Source of the DNA: an uncultured Gammaproteobacteria bacterium
GTDB lineage: Bacteria; Patescibacteriota; Patescibacteriia; UBA1558; GWA2-36-10
Direction of reading: 5' to 3'
DNA length: 64,000 nucleotides
Assembly: GCA_964515785.1 (NCBI GenBank)
Contig: CAZEWH010000003.1
Location: 16,013-80,012 of the forward strand
The translations under genes and the position numbers were made by a program. Positions within the stretch are counted from its first letter, which is position 1. Every line of letters starts with the position of its first letter. The notes beneath the pieces are model-generated. The model was not told the origin of the DNA and did no database searches. It worked only from the letters and a program-made list of their open reading frames with translations. Of this stretch, positions 5,013 to 62,876 are shown piece by piece.

Positions 5013-5354
5013 TCAAAGATCCAAACCCTCCACCTTAGCGGGGTCAAGTTGACTGCCACCATTAGGGAAAAGAACCATCGGGCCCATGGTCGGCATCATA
5101 CACATGATACGACCATTACTAATCTCCTGAGGTTTAATCTCGTTACCGTTTACAGAGCTAGTAGTGATGTCCCATTTTCTCCAGGTACCCTCACCTGGGG
5201 TCATGGCAGCCATCCACTCATTTTCAAAGCGGACCATACCATAATCGTCGATGGTAATACTCTTGATGGGCCCACGATAAACACTACCGCCCTCTTGAGT
5301 CTCAATATCACCACCAATAAACTTGCCACTGTCGACTACTTCTTGCCATTCCAT
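5013..5354 (-). CDS. hypothetical protein, GC-rich ORFan (island B)
   Basis: ORF 5013-5369; preferred start is second ATG (5354) because GGGAGG lies 7 nt upstream of it (inside codons 2-3 of the longer ORF); translation MEWQEVVDSGKFIGGDIETQEGG...; no known motif. Confidence 0.5.
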   Translation of the reverse strand: MEWQEVVDSGKFIGGDIETQEGGSVYRGPIKSITIDDYGMVRFENEWMAAMTPGEGTWRKWDITTSSVNGNEIKPQEISNGRIMCMMPTMGPMVLFPNGGSQLDPAKVEGLDL

Positions 5355-5439
5355 AAACTGACCTCCCATTAGGGTTTAAAAACAACAGATGAATTCATAA
5401 TAAATTAACACTAAGCTAAATTATTGTCAAATAGAAGAA

Positions 5440-5705
5440 CCAGTGCTTCTGATGGATAGACCTTGCGGCGCACCATCCACACTGGTTCAGCTCGGTCCTC
5501 AATGACCATGATTTAGTCACTCCGCGTACGGACGAGGACCCTTCGTTAGATCCTAGTTATTCAAATAAGCCAATGTGGCTCTCCATCTACCGGTTGCTAC
5601 CGGCAGGCTTGGAAACAGCAGATATTGTATCCAGCTTTCGGCCTATCATGTGGTGAACCCACTTCGCCGCAGCACGCAATACATAGAGCTACTGCTCACG
5701 TTTAG
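5440..5705 (-). other. GC-rich non-coding block upstream of ORF 5013-5354; candidate structured leader or small RNA
   Basis: about 270 bp with no ORF of 60 aa or more on either strand, GC far above flanks, long-range complementarity (TGCGGCG near 5' end with CGCCGCA near 3' end on minus strand); no match to tmRNA/RNase P/SRP/rRNA signature strings that I know. Confidence 0.3.
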
Positions 5706-5803
5706 AATCTATTTATGAGATTAGCAAATAAATTATTTTTAGTCAAAATATTTACAGTTATGGATATCTCAGTTAAAATAGTAATATAAATTAAATAAAC
5801 ACT

Positions 5804-6346
5804 ATGAAAAAAATTATTTTAACTATTATAATTTTGGCTCTAGTAATTTTCTTTTGGCCAAAATATAATGGTAGTGGCGGTAGTGCTGTTGACGCTAAAA
5901 ATACTCAATGTCAATGCATTGGTATTCAAAAAGATTGGGTAGCTATTGGCTCTTGGAAGTCTACTTGTTATGGAATTCCTATAGATTGCCAAACTACTTA
6001 TGGAACAAGAGACCATCTAACTACTATTTCTGAAATAAAAAATACTAAGCCTACTACAGGTAATTTTATTGTAGAAGGCTATGTAGTAAAAATATATACT
6101 TGCCCCTCATGTCCGCCAGGAGCTCAATGTAAACCTTGTATGAAAAATAATATTATAATTTCAACTAATAATAATTTGCTTGAAACTTATGATCTATCAG
6201 ATAATGAATTAATATTATTTATAAACGACCTTGAAGGACTTGAGTTAGGTAAAAAATACGAATTCTCTATAAATATTCTAGATTATAAATCTACTTTGGA
6301 AAATATAAATGATATCAAAATAGCTGGATGGAATCCAATAGAATAA
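5804..6346 (+). CDS. secreted cysteine-rich hypothetical protein (native composition)
   Basis: 180 aa; N-terminal signal/anchor MKKIILTIIILALVIFF; multiple CxC/CPxC pairs; TTTACA-17-TAAAAT promoter upstream. Confidence 0.55.
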   Translation: MKKIILTIIILALVIFFWPKYNGSGGSAVDAKNTQCQCIGIQKDWVAIGSWKSTCYGIPIDCQTTYGTRDHLTTISEIKNTKPTTGNFIVEGYVVKIYTCPSCPPGAQCKPCMKNNIIISTNNNLLETYDLSDNELILFINDLEGLELGKKYEFSINILDYKSTLENINDIKIAGWNPIE

Positions 6347-6349
6347 AAT

Positions 6350-6386
6350 AAAAAAGTCGTGGTATAGTCCACGACTTTATTTTTTA
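6350..6386. terminator. bidirectional terminator shared by convergent genes
   Basis: AGTCGTGG-TATAGT-CCACGACT hairpin flanked by A-run and T-run. Confidence 0.6.
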
Positions 6387-6704
6387 AACCTCGATGATCA
6401 CCGTATGATCGGCTGTGCCATGCTCCCAGCGAGGATTAAAATCCGGCTGCTGGAAAGTCTCATGGTAACGTGGATGAAGATCACTCTCCAGAGAGCAAAC
6501 GTCTTCGGTAGTCATCACGACTAGACAAGTGGCATCGCCAAAGCCTGTCCGTAAAGCCAAGCTATGAGCCTCTTCGGTACTCAGTGGCCACTTGGCTGCC
6601 AAGGACTGAGCCATGGATTTGGCCAACATACCATTACAGCCAGCTACGACTTTCATGACCACCTGACCATCTGAAGTGACTGTTACTAAACCTTGCGTTG
6701 CCAT
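6384..6704 (-). CDS. hypothetical protein, GC-rich (island C, third gene)
   Basis: ATG at 6704 preceded by AAGGAGG with 5-6 nt spacing (track ORF starts 6 nt earlier at a GTG); translation MATQGLVTVTSDGQVVMKVVAGCNG...; no known motif. Confidence 0.5.
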   Translation of the reverse strand: MATQGLVTVTSDGQVVMKVVAGCNGMLAKSMAQSLAAKWPLSTEEAHSLALRTGFGDATCLVVMTTEDVCSLESDLHPRYHETFQQPDFNPRWEHGTADHTVIIEV

Positions 6705-6714
6705 ATCCACCTCC

Positions 6715-6933
6715 TTAGGATCTGAAAATGTTTAGAAGAATCCAGCTGTCCCCCCGATCATCCTCCTGGCCGCGGGCCAGCTCCTGATCTAGATGAGGGC
6801 ATGATGTGGCAATGAAAATCTGCTCATCAGTGCGGGCAAGACCGACTGCTAGGGGTATTTCAGCTGAGGCCCTGCAATCGTACTGCTTGCATTCGCAAAG
6901 AATTGCCTGTGTTTCCTCGACTGCTTCGGACAC
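6715..6933 (-). CDS. small Cys-rich hypothetical protein, GC-rich (island C, second gene)
   Basis: track ORF 6715-6996 overlaps upstream gene; AAGGAGG then GTG at 6933 gives a 72-aa product MSEAVEETQAILCECKQYDCRAS...SCPH... without overlap; SD of next gene overlaps its stop. Confidence 0.4.
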   Translation of the reverse strand: MSEAVEETQAILCECKQYDCRASAEIPLAVGLARTDEQIFIATSCPHLDQELARGQEDDRGDSWILLNIFRS

Positions 6934-6955
6934 AACGGCCTCCTTAATGGTAGTT

Positions 6956-7165
6956 CTACAAACCGATTCGACCTTTGATCTGTCTTTCGGTTTCATCCAT
7001 TTTCTTTTTAAGAACCCAGAAGGCTCTTATCTGAAATCCTCCGCCGATTGTGATAATCGCCAAAGGAAGGACAATCCAAGCTGGATGCGTTGTCACATCT
7101 TTGAGAACAAAAGCTAATATCGTTCCAATAACGATAAAGCAAATACCAACTAAGAAATTCTTCAT
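6956..7165 (-). CDS. small two-helix membrane protein (island C, first gene)
   Basis: 69 aa, two hydrophobic stretches; AGAGG 6 nt upstream of ATG. Confidence 0.45.
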   Translation of the reverse strand: MKNFLVGICFIVIGTILAFVLKDVTTHPAWIVLPLAIITIGGGFQIRAFWVLKKKMDETERQIKGRIGL

Positions 7166-7292
7166 CTTGCACCTCTTTGACTTTTGAATTTATGTACGTA
7201 AAACATAGCAATATAACATAAATATATTGCTTTGTCAACATGTACCACTCACACTTTGTGTTCGGGTACATGTTTAAAAATACTAAATAAAA

Positions 7293-7313
7293 AGACCTGA
7301 ATGATTCAGGTCT
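7293..7313 (-). terminator. terminator hairpin containing the stop codon of ORF 7306-7632
   Basis: AGACCTGA-ATCATT-CAGGTCT hairpin then T-run on minus strand; TGA stop lies inside stem. Confidence 0.5.
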
Positions 7314-7632
7314 TGAAATCGTAATTCCAGCTGATTCTAATAATGAACTGGCTGCACTGTTTATCAACTCGCAGAATAGTAGAATTCAACTCCCAACTGT
7401 CCATCACAGCTTGATGACCATACTTTTTGCGTAGCAAACCCAACACATATTCATCAGTGATCTTTGTCTCACTAGGACGGACAATCCAAAAAGTGCTAGT
7501 CCTCAAGCCGTTTACTACCTTGGGTTTACCTCTAGGAAAAAGCATTCCCAAGATATCCGGGACACCGGAAAAACCATCTCTGTCTATGAGAAAAAGACGA
7601 TCTGACAAAGCAAAGTTATCACTAGGCCGCAT
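7306..7632 (-). CDS. hypothetical protein, GC-rich ORFan (island D1)
   Basis: 108 aa; AGGAGG 7 nt upstream; own terminator; no motif recognised. Confidence 0.5.
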   Translation of the reverse strand: MRPSDNFALSDRLFLIDRDGFSGVPDILGMLFPRGKPKVVNGLRTSTFWIVRPSETKITDEYVLGLLRKKYGHQAVMDSWELNSTILRVDKQCSQFIIRISWNYDFKT

Positions 7633-7747
7633 TGTTGTGCCTCCTGTTCTGTTGATTTAGAAGAACTCAAGTCTATACTTAGACTAGCTGAATTAAATAA
7701 ATATAGCAAGTAAAAAAGAGCTAGCAAATTGCTAACTCTTTGAAAAA

Positions 7748-8044
7748 CTAGTCCTCGTCCTGATTCCGCGGATCGCGGAACTTGAGCTCATGCCTGTCGC
7801 AGAACTTGGCCAGGAATTGGTAAAAACGCTCTTCATCATTTTCCCAAATCTTGACCTCAATATGCCAACCATTGGGATGATCGCGATATGTCTCAACGGG
7901 TTGAAACATTTTTCCAGCGTGTGTATCATGCACAGCAAACTCTTCGCCGTAGTTAATGATGAACTCCCAGACATGCGGCAGGGGAATTACAATATGAAGA
8001 TAGATAAAGCGCATGTAAATACTTACATCGTGCTCTTTAGGCAT
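7748..8044 (-). CDS. hypothetical protein, GC-rich ORFan (island D2)
   Basis: 98 aa; AGGAGG 6 nt upstream of ATG; 5'-UTR shares a 20-nt module with the ORF at 34872-35075. Confidence 0.5.
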   Translation of the reverse strand: MPKEHDVSIYMRFIYLHIVIPLPHVWEFIINYGEEFAVHDTHAGKMFQPVETYRDHPNGWHIEVKIWENDEERFYQFLAKFCDRHELKFRDPRNQDED

Positions 8045-16544: not shown

Positions 16545-17234
16545 ATGAATAATCGTACTGGTATTCTGGTCCATGGCTGTCACGTACAAGCCGAGGACTG
16601 GGAACGCATTGTCTGGGGTGAACCACCCTATCAGTTAGGTCGTATCCCCGCAGCCGTGTTACTGGCTATCAAAACTGAAGCCAGAATGATCATCTTTGGC
16701 ACTGGTGCCTCTCAAACTCCTGAGGGTATCAAAGAAGGTCAGGCTACTCTCAATCTCTTGAAAGAGCGTTGGGATAATCTGTGTGACTTCATAGACCTGG
16801 AAGAAAAGTACCAAGGAGGTGGCTGGCCTAATAAGGAAAACTTCCTCGATATTTGTGTTGCTGAGATCGAATCTCAAAACACTGTCGATGAAGTCCGTAA
16901 CGCTGGTCAAATCTTCGCAGATGCTGGCATTGACAGAATCTGTCTGGTCTCCAGCCCGACTCATTTGTCACGTTGCCTGCTCAACGCCATGCAAGTTTTT
17001 GGCAAGACTCCGGAACTTCAGCATCTGATGCGTGGACTGTTTGCTCATCCGAGTGACACCTGCTATGCTGGAGCGACTACCGATGACATCGTGGTCCTTG
17101 AGCCAAATCACCGCGGTGATATTGAGCCGACTAGTCCTCAGCTCAACGAATTAGTTCCTCGATTCTTTGGACTCCAAGACAAACAAAGCTTTGTCGAAGA
17201 TTTTGAAGCTCTGTTGCGTAAACACGGCGCTTAA
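16545..17234 (+). CDS. DUF218 (YdcF/SanA-like) domain protein, GC-rich (island E)
   Basis: E..NT.DE.RNA...LVSSP.HL.RC pattern matches DUF218 signature; GC-rich; hairpin terminator 17244-17270. Confidence 0.4.
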   Translation: MNNRTGILVHGCHVQAEDWERIVWGEPPYQLGRIPAAVLLAIKTEARMIIFGTGASQTPEGIKEGQATLNLLKERWDNLCDFIDLEEKYQGGGWPNKENFLDICVAEIESQNTVDEVRNAGQIFADAGIDRICLVSSPTHLSRCLLNAMQVFGKTPELQHLMRGLFAHPSDTCYAGATTDDIVVLEPNHRGDIEPTSPQLNELVPRFFGLQDKQSFVEDFEALLRKHGA

Positions 17235-18045: not shown

Positions 18046-18450
18046 CTATTTCTTCTTGGTCTTGGACGAAGCAAGACGACTGCCTACATAGTTTTGCAAG
18101 GCCTGGAGATATTGCAAATGTTCTGTGCGCAACCTAGGACTAAGCAATTTGTCTTGAAGTTGAGACACGCCACCAAACTTGACCAGGGCTTGAGCACTTA
18201 GATCAAGAAGATCGCCATCATAACCCTTATGAGGATATTGCAATAGGGTTTCAATGCACTGCTGATATGCTTTTTTGGGAATATGCCCTCTAAGCATGAG
18301 AAGAACAGCAATGCGCGTTGGCCAATCACAAGGGTGACGAATTATCATGGCCTCAATTTTTTCGAGAAAAGCAGTCTCTCTACCACCAGTAAACATTTTG
18401 ATTAACAACTCATGCAAAGGCGGACATTCGGCTCCTGGCTTATTAGACAT
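18046..18450 (-). CDS. hypothetical protein, GC-rich ORFan (island F)
   Basis: 134 aa; GGAGG 6 nt upstream; TTGACA-17-TAAAAT promoter on minus strand; no motif. Confidence 0.5.
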   Translation of the reverse strand: MSNKPGAECPPLHELLIKMFTGGRETAFLEKIEAMIIRHPCDWPTRIAVLLMLRGHIPKKAYQQCIETLLQYPHKGYDGDLLDLSAQALVKFGGVSQLQDKLLSPRLRTEHLQYLQALQNYVGSRLASSKTKKK

Positions 18451-20272: not shown

Positions 20273-21277
20273 ATGCAAAAAGCAAACGTAGCTAGTCTTG
20301 AGGGCTTTGTACTCAAGGCCGCTCAAGATTTTTTTCACAACCAAGGCTTTACTCCTCTGTTTCCACCGAGGATTGTCAGAGCTAGTGGGGCTTGTGAGAA
20401 CGTCAACACTTTATTTGAGGTCAGTGTCGATAATGACCACAAATGGTTTGACCGCAATGCCTATCTAGCTCAGACTGGCCAACTTTATCTAGAGGCCTTT
20501 GTACCTAGTTTAGACAAAGTATATTGTGTTGGTCCATCATTTCGAGCTGAACCAAAAATAGACAGTCGCCATCTAACAGAGTTCACTATGATGGAAATAG
20601 AATTTGCTGGTAATTTTGAAGATTTATTATCTTATATCGAAAGCCTGATTCATCATGTAGCCCAGGCAGTAGCTGATCAACCACAGGCCAAAGAAAAATT
20701 TGGTCTTAGTGACCAAGATTTGAAAAGACTCAAATCTTGTCCAGCAAAATTTCATCGCTTTACTTATGACCAAGCGATAAAAAAGCTTCAAGAGCTTGGC
20801 GAAGATATCAGATGGGGAGATGATATCTCCAGTCAACGAGAAAAATTATTAATTGCAACGGTTGGAAATCAACCGTTATTTATTACCCATTATCCTGACC
20901 CAATGTATCCAGAACATCAAGATATCGAAGTAGAAAAATTTTTCAACATGCTACCTTCCAAAGATAATCCTGGTAGAGTCTTGAGCTCTGATTGTATCTT
21001 GCCCTTTGGTGGCGAGTCAGTCGGTGCGGCTGCCAGAGTTCATACACTTGATGAACTGATTAATAGATTAAAAAACTCCAAGATGTACAAACGCTTAGAG
21101 AAAAAGGGTGGAGATATATCTGACTTTGAATGGTATATTGATAAAATCAAAACCAACGGTGCTGTACCCCACGCTGGCTGTGGCTTTGGTATGTCTAGAA
21201 TATTACAATTTATCTCTGGTAAGACAGATATCACTGATGCTGTCACTTTTCCAGCTAACAAAGGACAGATTATTTAA
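20273..21277 (+). CDS. class II aaRS catalytic-core paralog (AsnRS/AspRS-like, no anticodon-binding domain); possible AsnA-type asparagine synthetase
   Basis: motif 2 FRAEPKIDSRHLTEFTMMEIEF, motif 3 GAVPHAGCGFGMSRILQF; only 334 aa and ORF starts right after a terminator, so N-terminal OB domain is genuinely absent. Confidence 0.55.
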   Translation: MQKANVASLEGFVLKAAQDFFHNQGFTPLFPPRIVRASGACENVNTLFEVSVDNDHKWFDRNAYLAQTGQLYLEAFVPSLDKVYCVGPSFRAEPKIDSRHLTEFTMMEIEFAGNFEDLLSYIESLIHHVAQAVADQPQAKEKFGLSDQDLKRLKSCPAKFHRFTYDQAIKKLQELGEDIRWGDDISSQREKLLIATVGNQPLFITHYPDPMYPEHQDIEVEKFFNMLPSKDNPGRVLSSDCILPFGGESVGAAARVHTLDELINRLKNSKMYKRLEKKGGDISDFEWYIDKIKTNGAVPHAGCGFGMSRILQFISGKTDITDAVTFPANKGQII

Positions 21278-21308
21278 AAACGGACTCAAAATTTTGAGTC
21301 CGTTTGTA

Positions 21309-21704
21309 CTATAGCAATTTGCTAATACCCCAGAGGGCTAGCAAATGCATAGTATTGTCTACCACCGCATAGACTAGACAGGAAAAAGCAATATCAATTT
21401 CCCGATATTGATCAGATGATTGCCATGCTTTGACAAAATTCCTACCTCTGATCATGTCTAGCCATTTTGCACCCCAAGACCATCTATCCAAAGGCCAATG
21501 ACTCAAGAATACTAAAGCCATGAGCCAAGGATGGAAATTCCATAAGAATAGACAAACACTAAGGGTATAAACCAGACAGTGCCAAGTGCACCATCCTGCA
21601 CCCTTCCAGCCTTTGACTGACTTGTTGAGAGCCATGGCTTTGGTTTGCAGGAGATAGTCACCTACTAGATGACCAAGTACGATTCTAGCAAAAAGATCTT
21701 CCAT
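21309..21704 (-). CDS. DUF3307-like small integral membrane protein (island G, second gene)
   Basis: 131 aa, HLVGDYLLQ and HWPLD motifs reminiscent of DUF3307; AAGGAG 6 nt upstream; overlaps upstream gene by 20 bp. Confidence 0.35.
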   Translation of the reverse strand: MEDLFARIVLGHLVGDYLLQTKAMALNKSVKGWKGAGWCTWHCLVYTLSVCLFLWNFHPWLMALVFLSHWPLDRWSWGAKWLDMIRGRNFVKAWQSSDQYREIDIAFSCLVYAVVDNTMHLLALWGISKLL

Positions 21705-22719
21705 GATGGACTCCTTGTCTAGCTTGAGATCTCAGATCTTCAAGCGAACCACTCGAGTCAATGCACTGCAGAAACAGTCGATGTTGTCTAACAATGTCTA
21801 CTGTCTGTTGCCAGCCAGGAATCTTGTCAATAAAAGCTGCCAGTCTAGGAGTACCTCTCCCATTGACCCTGCGCAGATTTTGAGATTCATCCTGACAACC
21901 CACATAGATGACTTTGCCACCGATAAAACGCCAAAACATTTTATCGGCCTGCATGCCATAGGGGACTTCAACAAAGACATTGCTATGCTGAGGCACAGCT
22001 CGCAAAGCTTGTTTGAGTAAATCCATCCAAGGCTCTTTGATGACAGCCTTGAGCTCTTCTTCACGTTCTAGAGCTAGCTGTACTAGATCCTGTCCTGGAA
22101 ATCTCTTTTCCAGTAATGGCTTTAACTGATCATTGAAATCATCAGTGTTGATATGCACATTACTAGTAGATTCTTCACTTAGCATCTGCAAAAAAGTAGA
22201 TTTACCAGAACCAGGCTTACCAACTACTAGAAAGAGATTGTTGATCATTAGCACTTTCTCAAGCAAAGCACTGATGACTAGTGGCGATACAAATTGACTC
22301 AATTCTTCCAAAGCCAATTCTGTGGCTAGTTGCCTGACTTTGGAAGAAGAAATGCCGTTGTGTTGCTCGTCACTGATCAGGTAGAGATACTTATCAATGC
22401 CATACTCTTGGCTATTGAGAAGCATAACTTCTGTTTCATGTTGCAGGTCATTGTGATCGCGAATACCTCTGATCATCACCAGTTGTGATAGATCGTATTT
22501 GCCTTCACCAAAAACCTTGACTTTGACATTGCTTGGCAAGTCATAGCTTTGCCAAAGTTGTTTGCATTCTTCGGCTGTAAACCAGCTACCATTTTTTTGA
22601 GGATTTCTCGAGCAAATGATAACTAGTTCTGGCAACATGACTGCTGCTTTACGAACAATAGCCAAATGCCCAAAAGTCGGCGGGCAAAAGCTACCAGGAT
22701 AAACATAGGTGACTGACAT
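21685..22719 (-). CDS. fusion of phosphopantetheine adenylyltransferase (CoaD/PPAT) domain and a P-loop kinase domain (CoaE-like?) (island G, first gene)
   Basis: N-term VYPGSFCPPTFGHLAIV...VMIRGIRDHNDLQHE...ISSSKVRQLA aligns along the length of E. coli CoaD as I recall it (about one-third identity by eye); C-term Walker A VVGKPGSGKST then NVHINTDD like CoaE; GC-rich; AAGGAGG 7 nt upstream. Confidence 0.55.
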   Translation of the reverse strand: MSVTYVYPGSFCPPTFGHLAIVRKAAVMLPELVIICSRNPQKNGSWFTAEECKQLWQSYDLPSNVKVKVFGEGKYDLSQLVMIRGIRDHNDLQHETEVMLLNSQEYGIDKYLYLISDEQHNGISSSKVRQLATELALEELSQFVSPLVISALLEKVLMINNLFLVVGKPGSGKSTFLQMLSEESTSNVHINTDDFNDQLKPLLEKRFPGQDLVQLALEREEELKAVIKEPWMDLLKQALRAVPQHSNVFVEVPYGMQADKMFWRFIGGKVIYVGCQDESQNLRRVNGRGTPRLAAFIDKIPGWQQTVDIVRQHRLFLQCIDSSGSLEDLRSQARQGVHHGRSFC

Positions 22720-22898
22720 GATCTTGCCTCCTTGTATTGGGTGATAGATTTGTCAATGTACTATGTTTGTATTATTATATAAATAAGAGATTTTGAACTA
22801 TTTTTAGTCAATTTTTTGATAAATTATTGTTTTTTAGCTAGTATTAGCTTCAAAAATATAATAAACTGTCGAATTTTTTCGACAACAACCATAAATAT

Positions 22899-23651
22899 AT
22901 GATCAAAGAAATAAAAAACAACCTAAAAGAATTGGGCTTTAATAACAATGAAATCAAGGTTTATACTGCTTTGACTCAATTAGGTGAAGCTACAGCTGCT
23001 CAAATAGCCAAAAAATCTGATATCCCCCGTACTACTGCTATAAGTATTTTGGATAAATTGGCTAATAATAAGCTACTTACTACCCATGTCTATCGAGGTA
23101 AGACATATTATTGGATTGAATCTCCTCAAACACTTAAAGAATCTTTTGTTCACAAAACAGTTGTTGCAGAACAACTCAGCGACCTACTCAATGATCTGTA
23201 TAGATCAGAAGCACACTTTCCTTATTCTAAGACTTTTGATACAAAAACTGGCATCAAAAATTTTATTGAAAAAAATATTGCTAATTTAAAAAAGAAATCA
23301 ACTATCTATACTATAGATAGTCCTGGGTCCGGTAATTATGCCAAAATATATTCAGAAAATTTTTCAAAAATTATGTTGGCTGCCAAAAAAAATAAACAAA
23401 TTTTTACTAAAAGCCTAGTACCAGCTGGATCACTAAAAAGTGTAGCTGAATATAAAATAAAAAACCAGAATATTGAAATTCGGGAATTGCCAAGTGATAT
23501 AAAATTTGAAGCTTCGTTATGGATTATTGAAAATAAAATATTTCACTTTTCTGGCAATCCTCCATTTATAGTTATGATCAAACACGATTTGATATATAGT
23601 GGTATCAAAAGTATTTATGATTATTTCTGGAATATATCTAGAACTAGTTAA
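22899..23651 (+). CDS. TrmB-family HTH transcriptional regulator
   Basis: N-terminal HTH EIKVYTALTQLGEATAAQIAKKSDIPRTTAISILDKLANNKLL typical of TrmB-type regulators. Confidence 0.5.
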   Translation: MIKEIKNNLKELGFNNNEIKVYTALTQLGEATAAQIAKKSDIPRTTAISILDKLANNKLLTTHVYRGKTYYWIESPQTLKESFVHKTVVAEQLSDLLNDLYRSEAHFPYSKTFDTKTGIKNFIEKNIANLKKKSTIYTIDSPGSGNYAKIYSENFSKIMLAAKKNKQIFTKSLVPAGSLKSVAEYKIKNQNIEIRELPSDIKFEASLWIIENKIFHFSGNPPFIVMIKHDLIYSGIKSIYDYFWNISRTS

Positions 23652-23705: not shown

Positions 23706-23780
23706 GGCCCCATCGTCTAGTGGTTAGGACTTCAGGTTTTCATCCTGGCAACCGGGGTTCGATTCCCCGTGGGGTCACCA
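23706..23780 (+). tRNA. tRNA-Glu (anticodon UUC), CCA encoded
   Basis: cloverleaf GGCCCCA/TGGGGTC acceptor, anticodon loop TTTTCAT, T-arm GGTTCGATTCC. Confidence 0.85.
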
Positions 23781-34757: not shown

Positions 34758-34832
<75 letters not shown>

Positions 34833-34833
34833 T

Positions 34834-34855
34834 CTCGCAATGCGAGATTTTTTTG
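34834..34855 (+). terminator. terminator hairpin after tRNA-Cys
   Basis: TCTCGCA-A-TGCGAGA + TTTTTTT. Confidence 0.55.
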
Positions 34856-34871
34856 ATACAAAAAAGCCCGA

Positions 34872-35075
34872 CTATTCAGTCGAGCCTTGATTTGATTCTT
34901 CTTGAGGAAGTTTGCAGCAAGCATCAGCTTCGTCAAAAGTCATGTATCGCATCCCGCAGACCGGGCAACGATAACGGCCATCGATACGGCCGTGTCGTTC
35001 GGCTTCAGACAACAGTTTGTGGTACTTGACATACTTCTTGGTTGCGGCATCATTTTGACTACCACTCACGTTCAT
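34872..35075 (-). CDS. zinc-ribbon-like mini-protein, GC-rich (tRNA-cluster island)
   Basis: RCPVCGMRYMTFDEADACCK; AAGGAGG abuts the ATG, so GTG at 35069 (6-nt spacing) is the likelier start; terminator CGACTGAATAGTCG + T-run downstream. Confidence 0.45.
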   Translation of the reverse strand: MNVSGSQNDAATKKYVKYHKLLSEAERHGRIDGRYRCPVCGMRYMTFDEADACCKLPQEESNQGSTE

Positions 35076-35234
35076 CCTCCTTGCAAAGGTACAAAGAACT
35101 ATTCTAAATTATCATAATTTTTTAGCTATGGCAAATAAAAAATCACGTAAAGACGCGAGCGTCCACGTGATAAAACAAAAACAAGCTAAAAGCTTGAATG
35201 GCGTGCCACGAACTTGAGCGAAGCGAATAGTTTG

Positions 35235-35322
35235 TGGTACCGGCGATCGGACTTGAACCGATACGGCCAATGGCCACAGGATTTTAAGTCCTGCGTGTCT
35301 ACCAATTCCACCACGCCGGCAC
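35235..35322 (-). tRNA. tRNA-Leu (anticodon UAA), long variable arm, CCA encoded
   Basis: reverse complement GTGCCGGCGTGGTGGAATTGGTAGACACGCAGGACTTAAAATCCTG...GGTTCAAGTCCGATCGCCGGTACCA. Confidence 0.8.
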
Positions 35323-35332
35323 GTTCTCAAAC

Positions 35333-35409
35333 TGGAGCGAGTGACCGGATTCGAACCGGCGACCTTTTCCTTGGCAAGGAAACGTTCTAGCCAACTGAAC
35401 TACACTCGC
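35333..35409 (-). tRNA. tRNA-Gly (anticodon GCC), CCA encoded
   Basis: reverse complement GCGAGTGTAGTTCAGTTGGCTAGAACGTTTCCTTGCCAAGGAAAAGGTCGCCGGTTCGAATCCGGTCACTCGCTCCA. Confidence 0.8.
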
Positions 35410-48651: not shown

Positions 48652-48984
48652 TTAGAGCTTAGCCTCTAGCTTGGCCCAAAACTCACCTTTAGGATCACTA
48701 TGCCAAGTACCATCTGGCTCTTCGACATCAAAACGATCCTCACACACTCTGACAGTGATTCCAAACTCCACATTACCTTCACTGAAGAATTTTACTTCGT
48801 AATGTGGCACTTGCTCAAGGTCAACCGACTCAATAGACCCATGATCTTCGCGGCCTCCACCAGCTGCCCAAAAGAAAAGGTCGTCTGCTTCTTGTGGATC
48901 GTCGATCACTACTGATTGAATTTCTGATTGACCAGGCATGTGTTTGGTAGCTTCAACTCTGACCATTTTAGGAACATGTCCCAC
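48652..48984 (-). CDS. hypothetical acidic protein, GC-rich (island I, third gene)
   Basis: track ORF to 49041 overlaps upstream gene; AGGAGG then GTG at 48984 (6-nt spacing) gives a non-overlapping 110-aa product. Confidence 0.45.
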   Translation of the reverse strand: MGHVPKMVRVEATKHMPGQSEIQSVVIDDPQEADDLFFWAAGGGREDHGSIESVDLEQVPHYEVKFFSEGNVEFGITVRVCEDRFDVEEPDGTWHSDPKGEFWAKLEAKL

Positions 48985-48994
48985 GATTAACCTC

Positions 48995-49297
48995 CTAACC
49001 CTCTTCAGAGCTTTTAAAGAAATCTCCCCAAGGGCCATCAACTAACTTCAGAATGGTCAACGGCACTTCAAAACGCTGATGATTCATGCTCGGTACCAGG
49101 ATCGTAGCTATGTCATTACCAGAAATCTGATCCGGTACATCATCTTCATTGATAATGCCTGTCGTTGCTTCCTCCATTGCCACGATAATGCCCTTGGTGT
49201 CAGCTGGTAGATCTTCATGAGCTTCGATCAGAGTGACTTCAGTTTCCATCAGATCTTCAGCTGTGAATTCAACTTCTACTCTTGCTCCCATGTTCAA
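48995..49297 (-). CDS. hypothetical acidic protein, GC-rich (island I, second gene)
   Basis: 100 aa, AAGGAGG 6 nt upstream. Confidence 0.5.
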   Translation of the reverse strand: MNMGARVEVEFTAEDLMETEVTLIEAHEDLPADTKGIIVAMEEATTGIINEDDVPDQISGNDIATILVPSMNHQRFEVPLTILKLVDGPWGDFFKSSEEG

Positions 49298-49314
49298 CCT
49301 CCTTATAAAGACAA

Positions 49315-49623
49315 CTATTCAAGTAACTCACAAAACATTTTACCAAAGACAAGAGCAGACATATGCTCTAATAGAGTATTCTCACGCCACCACGCAGCTG
49401 CTTTTGGACTCTTGATTGCAAGGATCTCTACAGCTTGCATTGCATCCACAGGATATCCCATTATGTTCTCAGGTTCTGCTAGACCACCATGAACACCTGT
49501 ATGAACACCCCTATTAAGATCGATAGCTTTGATAGGAATTTCCAAACCAACCCATTGTTCTCGCACCCATTCTGGGGCTTGTCCCGCAGGGACGCTGGTA
49601 ATCCTGATTTTTGACATAGTCAA
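49315..49623 (-). CDS. hypothetical protein, GC-rich (island I, first gene)
   Basis: 102 aa, AGGAGG 7 nt upstream. Confidence 0.5.
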   Translation of the reverse strand: MTMSKIRITSVPAGQAPEWVREQWVGLEIPIKAIDLNRGVHTGVHGGLAEPENIMGYPVDAMQAVEILAIKSPKAAAWWRENTLLEHMSALVFGKMFCELLE

Positions 49624-62189: not shown

Positions 62190-62876
62190 ATGAAAGCCAT
62201 CAAAGTGATGTTGCTGCTACTTGCGTGCCTGAGCTTGCTCCTGGTGGGCTGTGGACAGCAAACCAGGACCACAAGTGGAGTCAAAATCGGTAGCTGGCCT
62301 CGTGGCAAAGATGCCACTGGAAGCAAGGTGATCGTCAGCGCCTCTTTTCAGAACAAATACAAATACCCCGTTGAGATCGCAATCAACAACGAGGATTTTG
62401 TTCTGATTCCGAGTGGTAAGAAATTTCCTTTCCGATTCAAGACTCATCACCAGGTCAGATATACTGTCCGGGCTGAAGTGGACAACGGCTATGATACCCA
62501 ACGTACCACAATCGAAGTCCAACGCTCCGGGCTATTCACCTACGGCGATGTGATTGTCATCAACGAAAACTTCATTCGCGATGCTTGTGAAGTGGTTGGT
62601 ATCATTACCAACAACCGCGGTTGGGAGATTACTTTCTGGCATTCTCAGGGTAGTAAACGCTGGGTCTTGAAACCTGGTCAGAGTACAGAGAAAATTACCA
62701 TTCTCTCTATTCCAACTACCTTCCACTGGGAGATCAGTGACCCTGACTACAGACAAAGTATGTTTGGAGTCAAGAGGCATCGGCCAACCTACTCTTATAA
62801 AGTCAATATCAATCAGAGCGCTGATTTTTACTGGCAGGGAGAGTGGCTCCACTGGCATTTTCCTCTTAATGATTGA
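62190..62876 (+). CDS. lipoprotein, GC-rich (island J)
   Basis: signal peptide with lipobox LLVGC; 228 aa; GC-rich codons; consensus promoter + SD + terminator. Confidence 0.6.
   Translation: MKAIKVMLLLLACLSLLLVGCGQQTRTTSGVKIGSWPRGKDATGSKVIVSASFQNKYKYPVEIAINNEDFVLIPSGKKFPFRFKTHHQVRYTVRAEVDNGYDTQRTTIEVQRSGLFTYGDVIVINENFIRDACEVVGIITNNRGWEITFWHSQGSKRWVLKPGQSTEKITILSIPTTFHWEISDPDYRQSMFGVKRHRPTYSYKVNINQSADFYWQGEWLHWHFPLND

Follow-up and report, generated by a model that had tools for sequence, protein, structure and literature searches.

Coenzyme A (CoA) is indispensable, and it is thought that bacteria of the Candidate Phyla Radiation (CPR) lack most cofactor synthesis. The source of their CoA is part of the question of what these bacteria take from their hosts. 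A 64,000-nucleotide stretch of contig CAZEWH010000003.1 (called the window below; positions are counted from its first letter unless a related locus, named by an L number, is given) carries at 21309-22719 two overlapping genes that raise this question. One encodes a 344-aa fusion of an N-terminal phosphopantetheine adenylyltransferase (PPAT, CoaD) domain and a C-terminal P-loop kinase domain, and the other a small membrane protein of the DUF3307 family. Can such a pair complete CoA from a scavenged precursor? CoA can be made from pantetheine or 4'-phosphopantetheine taken up by the cell, little is known about the entry of these compounds into cells, and no yeast transporter for them was known before the study that reports these points (PMC12406275). 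Our literature search found neither DUF3307 nor a CPR PPAT-kinase fusion linked to CoA. Databases label the fusion generically, or occasionally as PPAT or dephospho-CoA kinase (DPCK).

We believe that the locus is probably a self-contained, locally regulated module of ultra-small CPR bacteria of the Parcubacteria type for the salvage of 4'-phosphopantetheine to CoA. This was already proposed in the initial annotation of the window, and it is the best reading of the PPAT and CoaE-like domains and of the linkage between DUF3307 and PPAT genes. The 344-aa protein would be a bifunctional CoA synthase, in which the bacterial-type PPAT domain would adenylylate 4'-phosphopantetheine to dephospho-CoA and the CoaE-like kinase would phosphorylate the 3'-OH of dephospho-CoA to give CoA. 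The translationally coupled DUF3307 protein would handle the precursor at the membrane. The divergon would be controlled by a TrmBL2-like regulator that acts on a palindrome and whose presumed signal is CoA or a precursor.

The fusion gene lies at 21685-22719 and the DUF3307 gene (131 aa) at 21309-21704, both on the minus strand. As described in the initial annotation, they overlap by 20 nt (21685-21704), and an overlap of 17-25 nt is kept in relatives. Canonical Shine-Dalgarno sequences, also noted before, stand 7 nt 5' of each ATG on the minus strand, AAGGAGG at 22727-22733 for the fusion gene and AAGGAG at 21711-21716 for the DUF3307 gene. All the motifs quoted at that time were found, namely GSFCPPTFGH, RGIRDHNDLQHE, ISSSKVRQLA, GKPGSGKST and NVHINTDD in the fusion and HLVGDYLLQ and HWPLD in the DUF3307 protein. 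At least 167 full-length homologues of the fusion exist, with full-length matches at E-values of 1e-99 to 1e-129, and the small ORF exceeds the cut-off of PF11750 (DUF3307; 35 bits versus 23, residues 4-98). Because of these homologues and this match, both ORFs are genuine genes and not chance ORFs. The unit is larger than first described, since it also has a divergent TrmB-family regulator gene, a palindrome as probable operator and a terminator-like hairpin.

The N-terminal domain (aa 1-157; 22249-22719, minus strand) was identified as a PPAT homologue by family model, solved structures and fold. TIGR01510 (coaD) gives 83.9 bits, aligning residues 6-155 with model positions 3-154 of 155, and PF01467 is passed with 41.2 bits against a cut-off of 21. 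Solved PPATs in the PDB match the domain at up to E 1e-16. The AF2 model had a predicted local confidence (pLDDT) of 94.4 and a predicted template-modelling score (pTM) of 0.92. The top 50 Foldseek matches of the domain in the PDB were all PPATs, with a target template-modelling score (TM) of 0.68-0.81, mostly about 0.75-0.80. Aligned with the CoaD record of E. coli MG1655, the residues H18, K42, R88, R91, D95, E99, N106 and S128-130 have identical counterparts throughout, which are H18, K42, R84, R87, D91, E95, N102 and S124-126 of the fusion, one to one. All of these except H18 are residues that we take to bind ATP and 4'-phosphopantetheine in the E. coli enzyme. Of 167 full-length members of the family, at least 95% have seven of the fusion residues (H18, K42, R84, R87, N102, S124 and S125); the equivalents of D95 and E99 and the third Ser are outside this set. 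On this evidence the N-terminal domain is a CoaD homologue with every checked catalytic residue, as the initial annotation had read it.

Compared with bacterial CoaD (TIGR01510, PF01467), the domain agrees in fold (TM about 0.8), is collinear with it over the full length at 28-34% identity, and shares the T/SxGH His, K42, R88, R91, N106 and the ISSS motif. The (T/H)xGH motif of the fusion reads PPTFGH and aligns on the catalytic His18 of E. coli, so the His whose loss had been thought fatal to the CoaD assignment is present. The difference is that bacterial CoaD is a stand-alone protein with FDPIT-x-GH, whereas the fusion has F-x-PPT-x-GH, like the CoaD of some Clostridia, and a kinase attached. 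The same variant was seen in an ordinary stand-alone 167-aa CoaD of Christensenellales, and it is therefore no argument against PPAT activity.

The C-terminal domain (aa 158-344; 21685-22248, minus strand) is more difficult to assign. Searches with single models returned generic kinase-type P-loop matches only, to AAA_18 (29.9 bits) and AAA_33. The initial annotation had named an AAA score as a sign of an unrelated family. Such names do formally score, and they are no argument against CoaE, because bona fide CoaE proteins match AAA_18 and AAA_33 at the same level. The annotation had also pointed to CoaE, zeta-toxin and NadR ribosylnicotinamide kinase (RNK) profiles; CoaE and zeta toxin gave P-loop matches only at this level, and among the kinase types compared profile against profile CoaE alone was aligned over the whole domain. 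In hhalign, a profile of four canonical CoaE proteins was aligned over 165 columns with a probability of 97.0% and E 1.1e-10. The CoaE of a CPR relative (L061) was aligned over 172 columns at 90%, and E. coli CoaE over 161 columns, with R284 and R288 of the lid placed on the CoaE RxxxR. NadR-RNK was aligned over 40 columns at 15-27% probability, and Adk, T4 Pnk, Tmk and Cmk likewise at the P-loop only, with 16-44 columns for the whole group. The adenylate, thymidylate and cytidylate kinase types and the NadR-RNK type were rejected for this reason.

The modelled fold points in the same direction. The AF2 model of residues 157-344 had a pLDDT of 93.4 and three parts (core, helical acceptor-binding insertion, lid), and its best structural matches were dephospho-CoA kinases with TM 0.70-0.74 and a root-mean-square deviation (rmsd) of about 3.1-3.9 (4i1u 0.73-0.74, 8dv0 0.72, 2if2 0.71, 9dug 0.71). 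Adenylate kinases reached a TM of about 0.6 with an rmsd of 5.5-6, at E-values similar to those of the DPCK group. Features common to the domain and CoaE (PF01121, TIGR00152) are Walker A, an Asp that follows strand 2, a helical insertion that separates strands 2 and 3, and RxxxR in the lid; the domain differs by an identity of only 14-21% and by belonging to an isolated family that is almost always fused to PPAT. At least 95% of the members keep G167, G172, K173, T175, D193, W231, E251, G267, R284 and R288. A phmmer search of 1.84 billion representative proteins found 93 relatives of the kinase domain, nearly all of them the same 340-360-aa fusion or its fragments, which ties the function of the kinase domain to PPAT. 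A word-indexed homologue search with the kinase domain alone returned fragments of the same family only. Taken by model and profile, the C-terminal domain is a very divergent CoaE-like kinase that lies below the family sequence models, and there is a fair probability that it acts as a DPCK. The dephospho-CoA-kinase-like C-terminal half of the initial annotation is thereby borne out in fold and in full-length profile alignment. A defence or toxin system was also considered and rejected. PADLOC gave only P-loop noise, and Zeta_toxin (PF06414) scored 22.1 bits with the full-length protein and 23.3 with the isolated domain against a cut-off of 22.3, in either case confined to about 35 residues around the P-loop.

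Proteins that combine the last two steps of CoA synthesis are known from other lineages. PPAT-DPCK fusions occur in eukaryotes and archaea, and it was through the fusion that the DPCK of archaea was discovered (PMC6650551). Eukaryotic COASY has the same domain order and the same inferred chemistry (PMC6650551, PMC12406275). The fusion described here would be an independent one, on the ground that its PPAT is of the bacterial CoaD type with bacterial proteins as its best sequence and fold matches; it also stands in a prokaryotic operon with a membrane partner and a regulator. The archaeal PPAT-arCOG04076 protein (Shimosaka et al. 2019, PMC6650551) comes from uncultured lineages and likewise joins PPAT to the enzyme that acts next, but its DPCK uses GTP and is no homologue of the P-loop protein CoaE, whereas the kinase here is a divergent CoaE-like P-loop protein. 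The fusion to PPAT, together with true CoaE in the kinase slot of some relatives (described below), follows the same logic as that find (PMC6650551). It can be regarded as a third, independently evolved fusion of the PPAT-DPCK type. A Clostridiales metagenome-assembled genome encodes a 366-aa CoaE-CoaD fusion (L026 5455-6555; PF01121 112 bits, PF01467 73.8 bits), which is likewise a single bacterial polypeptide and differs in its reversed order, with the kinase first, and in having two canonical domains. No DUF3307 or TrmB homologue was detected in that 12.5-kb locus. This indicates that bacteria have fused the final two enzymes of CoA synthesis on more than one occasion.

The association of DUF3307 with CoA genes was examined in a metagenome scan with DUF3307, which gave 80 loci, 62 of them with enough flank to assess. 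The DUF3307 gene of this subfamily adjoins a PPAT gene in 57 of the 62. In 37 loci the fusion is followed by DUF3307, in 4 a PPAT-only gene of the fusion type is followed by DUF3307, in 13 DUF3307 is followed by canonical coaD, and in 3 the order is DUF3307, canonical coaE, coaD; PPAT was not nearby in the remaining 5. The coaE genes between DUF3307 and coaD pass PF01121 with 115 and 91 bits. One such operon (L061 4001-5492) is chromosomal and adjoins dnaK/dnaJ. The other two (L129 and L130; L130 3980-5505) have identical coaE genes and are flanked by a Toprim primase-like gene and by a DEAD_2 helicase gene, a setting that points to CoA genes carried by a phage or mobile element with a CPR host. 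A split form was also found (L153 868-1368 and 4001-5312), in which a PPAT-only gene (FCPPQYGH) and a stand-alone 218-aa kinase of the fusion's kinase family are 2.6 kb apart with a HIT-family gene between them. PPAT thus accompanies this subfamily of DUF3307 in three different gene orders, and where the divergent kinase domain is absent the kinase slot is filled by true CoaE. The DUF3307-like membrane partner of the initial annotation is thus confirmed by family model, by overlap and by linkage, and the locus provides a first functional context for DUF3307.

Some relatives depart from this arrangement. At L024 5989-7326, a PPAT-only gene comes after the TrmB gene and the palindrome; its 178-aa product has an odd Cys-rich tail, and neither the kinase domain nor DUF3307 is present. 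The fusion homologues of L021 (labelled Saccharibacteria) and L022 (5977-7005; labelled 'Patescibacteria group') are without a TrmB or DUF3307 neighbour, and their RxxxRGT lid motif is replaced by R-x2-R and a different sequence. These two may be a functionally different branch of the fusion.

Several results weigh against the salvage module. The N-terminal domain misses the equivalog (trusted) cut-off of TIGR01510, which is 103.3 bits. The C-terminal domain reaches the threshold of no CoaE model: PF01121 matches neither the window protein nor any of 28 family members, and the TIGR00152 match is confined to the P-loop, with 15.3 bits where the cut-off is 65.55. The first 45 residues of the kinase domain are most like polynucleotide kinases. 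The archaeal CoaE homologues TK1334 and TK2192 are without DPCK activity, and homology is thus no proof of activity (PMC6650551). A comparison of DUF3307 with solved structures gave no solved relative. The 22 viral contigs with DUF3307 relatives that a scan of IMG/VR returned have neither PPAT nor CoaE and no recurrent neighbour family, and two fusion-bearing genomes, L021 and L022, have no DUF3307 gene nearby.

From these observations one could argue that the unit is unrelated to CoA. A PPAT-like transferase and a polynucleotide-kinase-like domain would then act on another phospho-alcohol, a nucleotide or an RNA end, with DUF3307 as membrane acceptor or enzyme, in a nucleotide-modifying, repair or envelope-precursor system. 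Both domains being below their equivalog cut-offs would fit, as would the viral DUF3307 relatives that have no linkage to CoA genes. The strongest local matches of the kinase also fit: when the family profile was compared with the PDB, Pnkp1 (residues 5-95) and T4 Pnk were best, while one CoaE (4zo4) was aligned over residues 3-133. However, these best matches are restricted to the segment from Walker A to the Asp of strand 2, the T4 Pnk alignment, at 95%, has only 44 columns, and the four-sequence CoaE profile gives the same short match, so this match does not discriminate. The polynucleotide kinase type was rejected despite its top local score. The PPAT residues that contact phosphopantetheine and ATP are kept, and DUF3307 genes of the same subfamily are also found with canonical coaE and coaD. 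The absence of PPAT and CoaE beside the viral relatives makes the PPAT link specific to the CPR subfamily. We consider a function outside CoA metabolism improbable.

A different division of labour is offered by analogy with NadR and PnuC. In that system, an HTH (helix-turn-helix) regulator, a HIGH-type nucleotidyltransferase and a P-loop kinase are combined with a small membrane partner for NAD salvage from nicotinamide riboside. The locus mirrors this set, and by the same logic DUF3307 would admit neutral pantetheine, the kinase would trap it as 4'-phosphopantetheine, PPAT would make dephospho-CoA and a separate CoaE would finish. The invariant polar residues of DUF3307 would suit a neutral, amide-rich ligand, and the link between DUF3307 and PPAT holds even without an adjacent kinase. 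But the regulator here is a separate TrmB-type protein, and the kinase, aligned over its whole length only with CoaE, resembles that of NadR at the 40 columns of the P-loop alone. The adjacent kinase in the DUF3307-coaE-coaD operons is true CoaE, and the profile searches reported no similarity to PanK families. The reaction order also seems to differ, being likely transferase then kinase here, and kinase then transferase in NadR. Such a pantetheine-trapping scheme is hardly probable. The window contains no separate coaE, panK or coaBC gene within its 64 kb.

The salvage module depends on a supply of its precursor, and the role of the DUF3307 protein in this can be read in more than one way. 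The protein has four hydrophobic helices and also matches phrog_2470 (E 1.9e-13). Among 13 CPR members, D16, Q20, H42, H69, D73, D116, N117 and also H120 are invariant, and H12 is kept in 12. These polar residues sit within the hydrophobic helices and repeat an H-x3-D spacing three times (H12/D16, H69/D73, D116/H120). Instead of a transporter, a protein with such an array of three His, three Asp, Gln and Asn could be a membrane-embedded metal-dependent phosphohydrolase or phosphodiesterase that works with PPAT. Scavenged CoA-type compounds (CoA, acyl-CoA or holo-carrier proteins) might be what it cleaves to free 4'-phosphopantetheine, or it might dispose of a by-product of adenylyl transfer. 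Among HD-family enzymes, AcpH sets 4'-phosphopantetheine free, and in nadD-yqeK a nucleotidyltransferase is paired with an HD hydrolase.

Soluble hydrolases in the position of DUF3307 favour this role. In L010 (6974-7672) and L018 (7049-7690), the gene downstream of the PPAT-kinase encodes a COG4339 "predicted metal-dependent HD superfamily phosphohydrolase", and the two proteins are 40% identical to each other. In L156 (4001-5707), a COG4339-type HD domain is in frame with the PPAT-kinase in a 568-aa three-domain protein (P0098) with a TrmB neighbour. A metallo-beta-lactamase-fold gene follows the PPAT gene of L024, and a weak Nudix-like gene (E 0.013, below threshold) follows the stand-alone kinase of L153. 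Yet there are just five such loci, and the same position is no proof of an equal role. The substitutes seem cytosolic, and cleaving CoA merely to rebuild it makes little sense. DUF3307 also showed no similarity to hydrolase families or solved structures; in Pfam, only PF11750 was matched at E-values up to 5. Pathway logic favours uptake instead, since salvage depends on a supply of 4'-phosphopantetheine, about whose transporters little is known (PMC12406275). The protein would then let 4'-phosphopantetheine or pantetheine enter the cell. For this role alone, we rate the hydrolase as the leading candidate, though short of an even chance, and the transporter as possible to a slightly lesser degree; it is less likely, but still conceivable, that the protein does something else.

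Relatives of the two proteins in viruses were observed in other settings. A DUF3307 gene 62% identical to that of the window lies on a 149-kb viral contig (L066, the same as L131; 3995-6146). It is followed by a nicotinate/quinolinate phosphoribosyltransferase-like gene and then an isochorismatase (nicotinamidase-like) gene, a context of NAD salvage and not of CoA. A tblastn search of GenBank phages with DUF3307 gave no match. PPAT homologues occur in jumbo phages and megaphages, such as MZ574432 (Caulobacter phage BL47 and relatives) and MK250015-29 (Lak megaphages). The Caulobacter phage matches reach residue 186 of the query and run from the gene annotated as PPAT into a neighbouring hypothetical gene.

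The third gene of the unit (22899-23651, plus strand, 250 aa) is divergent from the fusion gene and encodes a TrmB-family regulator. Its winged helix (residues 9-65) gives 48.7 bits with PF01978 against a cut-off of 25.6, and its best solved relatives are TrmBL2 proteins (residues 14-215, E 8e-4). The regulator gene is in the same divergent position in 13 of the 16 genome loci that encode a full-length fusion (L008-L023), in the PPAT-only locus L024, and in most metagenomic loci with enough flank. It also accompanies the DUF3307-coaD arrangement (L116, L117 and L124). Between the divergent genes, 14 bp upstream of the regulator ATG and at about -150 from the fusion ATG, lies an 18-bp palindrome, TGTCGAAAAAATTCGACA (22867-22884), with the consensus TGTCGA-N6-TCGACA. 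The palindrome without mismatch has one copy in the window. Of 43 related loci, 19 have it, each likewise in a single copy and always in the same intergenic region. Among 36 distinct upstream regions, 24 carry the perfect palindrome and 28 a relaxed form, against a shuffle expectation of 0.005. This palindrome is the probable operator, which the TrmB-like regulator would bind. A regulator with so sharply defined an operator could report the metabolite that the cell senses.

Closer to the fusion gene, the promoter-proximal region (22750-22779, minus strand) has a -10-like TATAAT (22774-22779). It also has a conserved box, CATTGACAA (22750-22758), at a distance of about 39 nt from the start codon. 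The box, CATT(G/A)ACAA in consensus, occurs at about -45 to -23 of the fusion start in 14 of the 36 upstream regions versus 0.2 expected, when counted with the pattern [AG]TT[AG]ACAA. It may serve as a half-site or as part of the leader.

A more far-reaching proposal can be built on the salvage module. The CPR subfamily of DUF3307 would be a dedicated prokaryotic entry route for 4'-phosphopantetheine, either as a small facilitator or as a metal-dependent membrane phosphodiesterase that harvests host-derived CoA compounds. With a new, highly divergent DPCK family and a CoA-sensing repressor of the TrmBL2 type, it would form a minimal CoA supply line for many CPR episymbionts. We regard this full scheme as speculative and, taken as a whole, rather unlikely. 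The locus does not overturn known biochemistry, and it is of interest mainly for its divergent DPCK family and for the context given to DUF3307. This kinase family is too divergent for current CoaE models, and the CoA capacity of CPR bacteria is therefore probably under-called in metabolic reconstructions.

Whether the pair is native to this genome was a further question, because the initial annotation had called it a foreign operon. The two genes are indeed GC-rich, as had been noted (0.426 and 0.427 versus 0.348 for the whole window). Their GC at third codon positions (GC3) is 0.39-0.41 versus about 0.24 in typical genes, and the adjoining regulator gene is AT-rich (GC 0.296). Against a recent acquisition, all named homologues of the fusion are from Patescibacteria, of Parcubacteria-type CPR lineages (Falkowbacteria, Komeilibacteria, Nealsonbacteria, Buchananbacteria and Pacebacteria). 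The trio of divergent TrmB gene, fusion and overlapping DUF3307, with its operator, recurs in genomes whose other neighbours differ. The closest relative (L008), in which glmS is nearby as in the window and GlmS is 75% identical, has the same offset, with GC 0.428 for the fusion and 0.434 for DUF3307 against 0.353 for the rest and 0.315 for the regulator. In more distant relatives the offset is smaller or nil, and the window has many other genes that are equally GC-rich. Taxonomy, shared synteny and the offset in L008 indicate that the offset is old and no sign of recent import. A foreign origin was therefore rejected, and the chance that the GC content reflects a recently acquired operon is very small.

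The other genes of the window are typical of a Patescibacteria genome (S1, FtsH, ValRS, TsaD/E, GlmS, NusA, H+-PPase, trigger factor, TyrRS, PBP and UvrB). Genes and clusters of small ORFs with GC 0.44-0.50 are found at 952-1662, 5013-8044, 16545-17234, 18046-18450, 48652-49623 and 62190-62876. Almost all are without Pfam matches or similarity obvious by eye, apart from one DUF218 protein and one likely lipoprotein, and they may be accessory or acquired.

Downstream of the DUF3307 gene, a terminator-like hairpin (21278-21305, minus strand) has a 12-bp stem followed by a U-run and lies between the convergent DUF3307 and asparaginyl-tRNA synthetase (AsnRS)-like genes. Its folding energy is -16.8 kcal/mol (z = -6.8 versus shuffles). 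It is absent from the list of the consensus scan, and it would act as a terminator. Rfam and tRNA scans gave no match inside the locus itself. The convergent gene (20273-21277, plus strand; GC 0.396) encodes a 334-aa class II Asn/Asp-tRNA synthetase paralogue with the catalytic core only, for which no homologue was found in any related locus. It gives 165 bits with PF00152, matches asnS models from about position 133 on and far under their cut-off, and has weaker matches to models of archaeal-type asparagine synthetase A. Directly 3' of the TrmB-like gene is a tRNA-Glu(UUC) gene (23706-23780, plus strand), and three more tRNA genes lie at 34758-35409.

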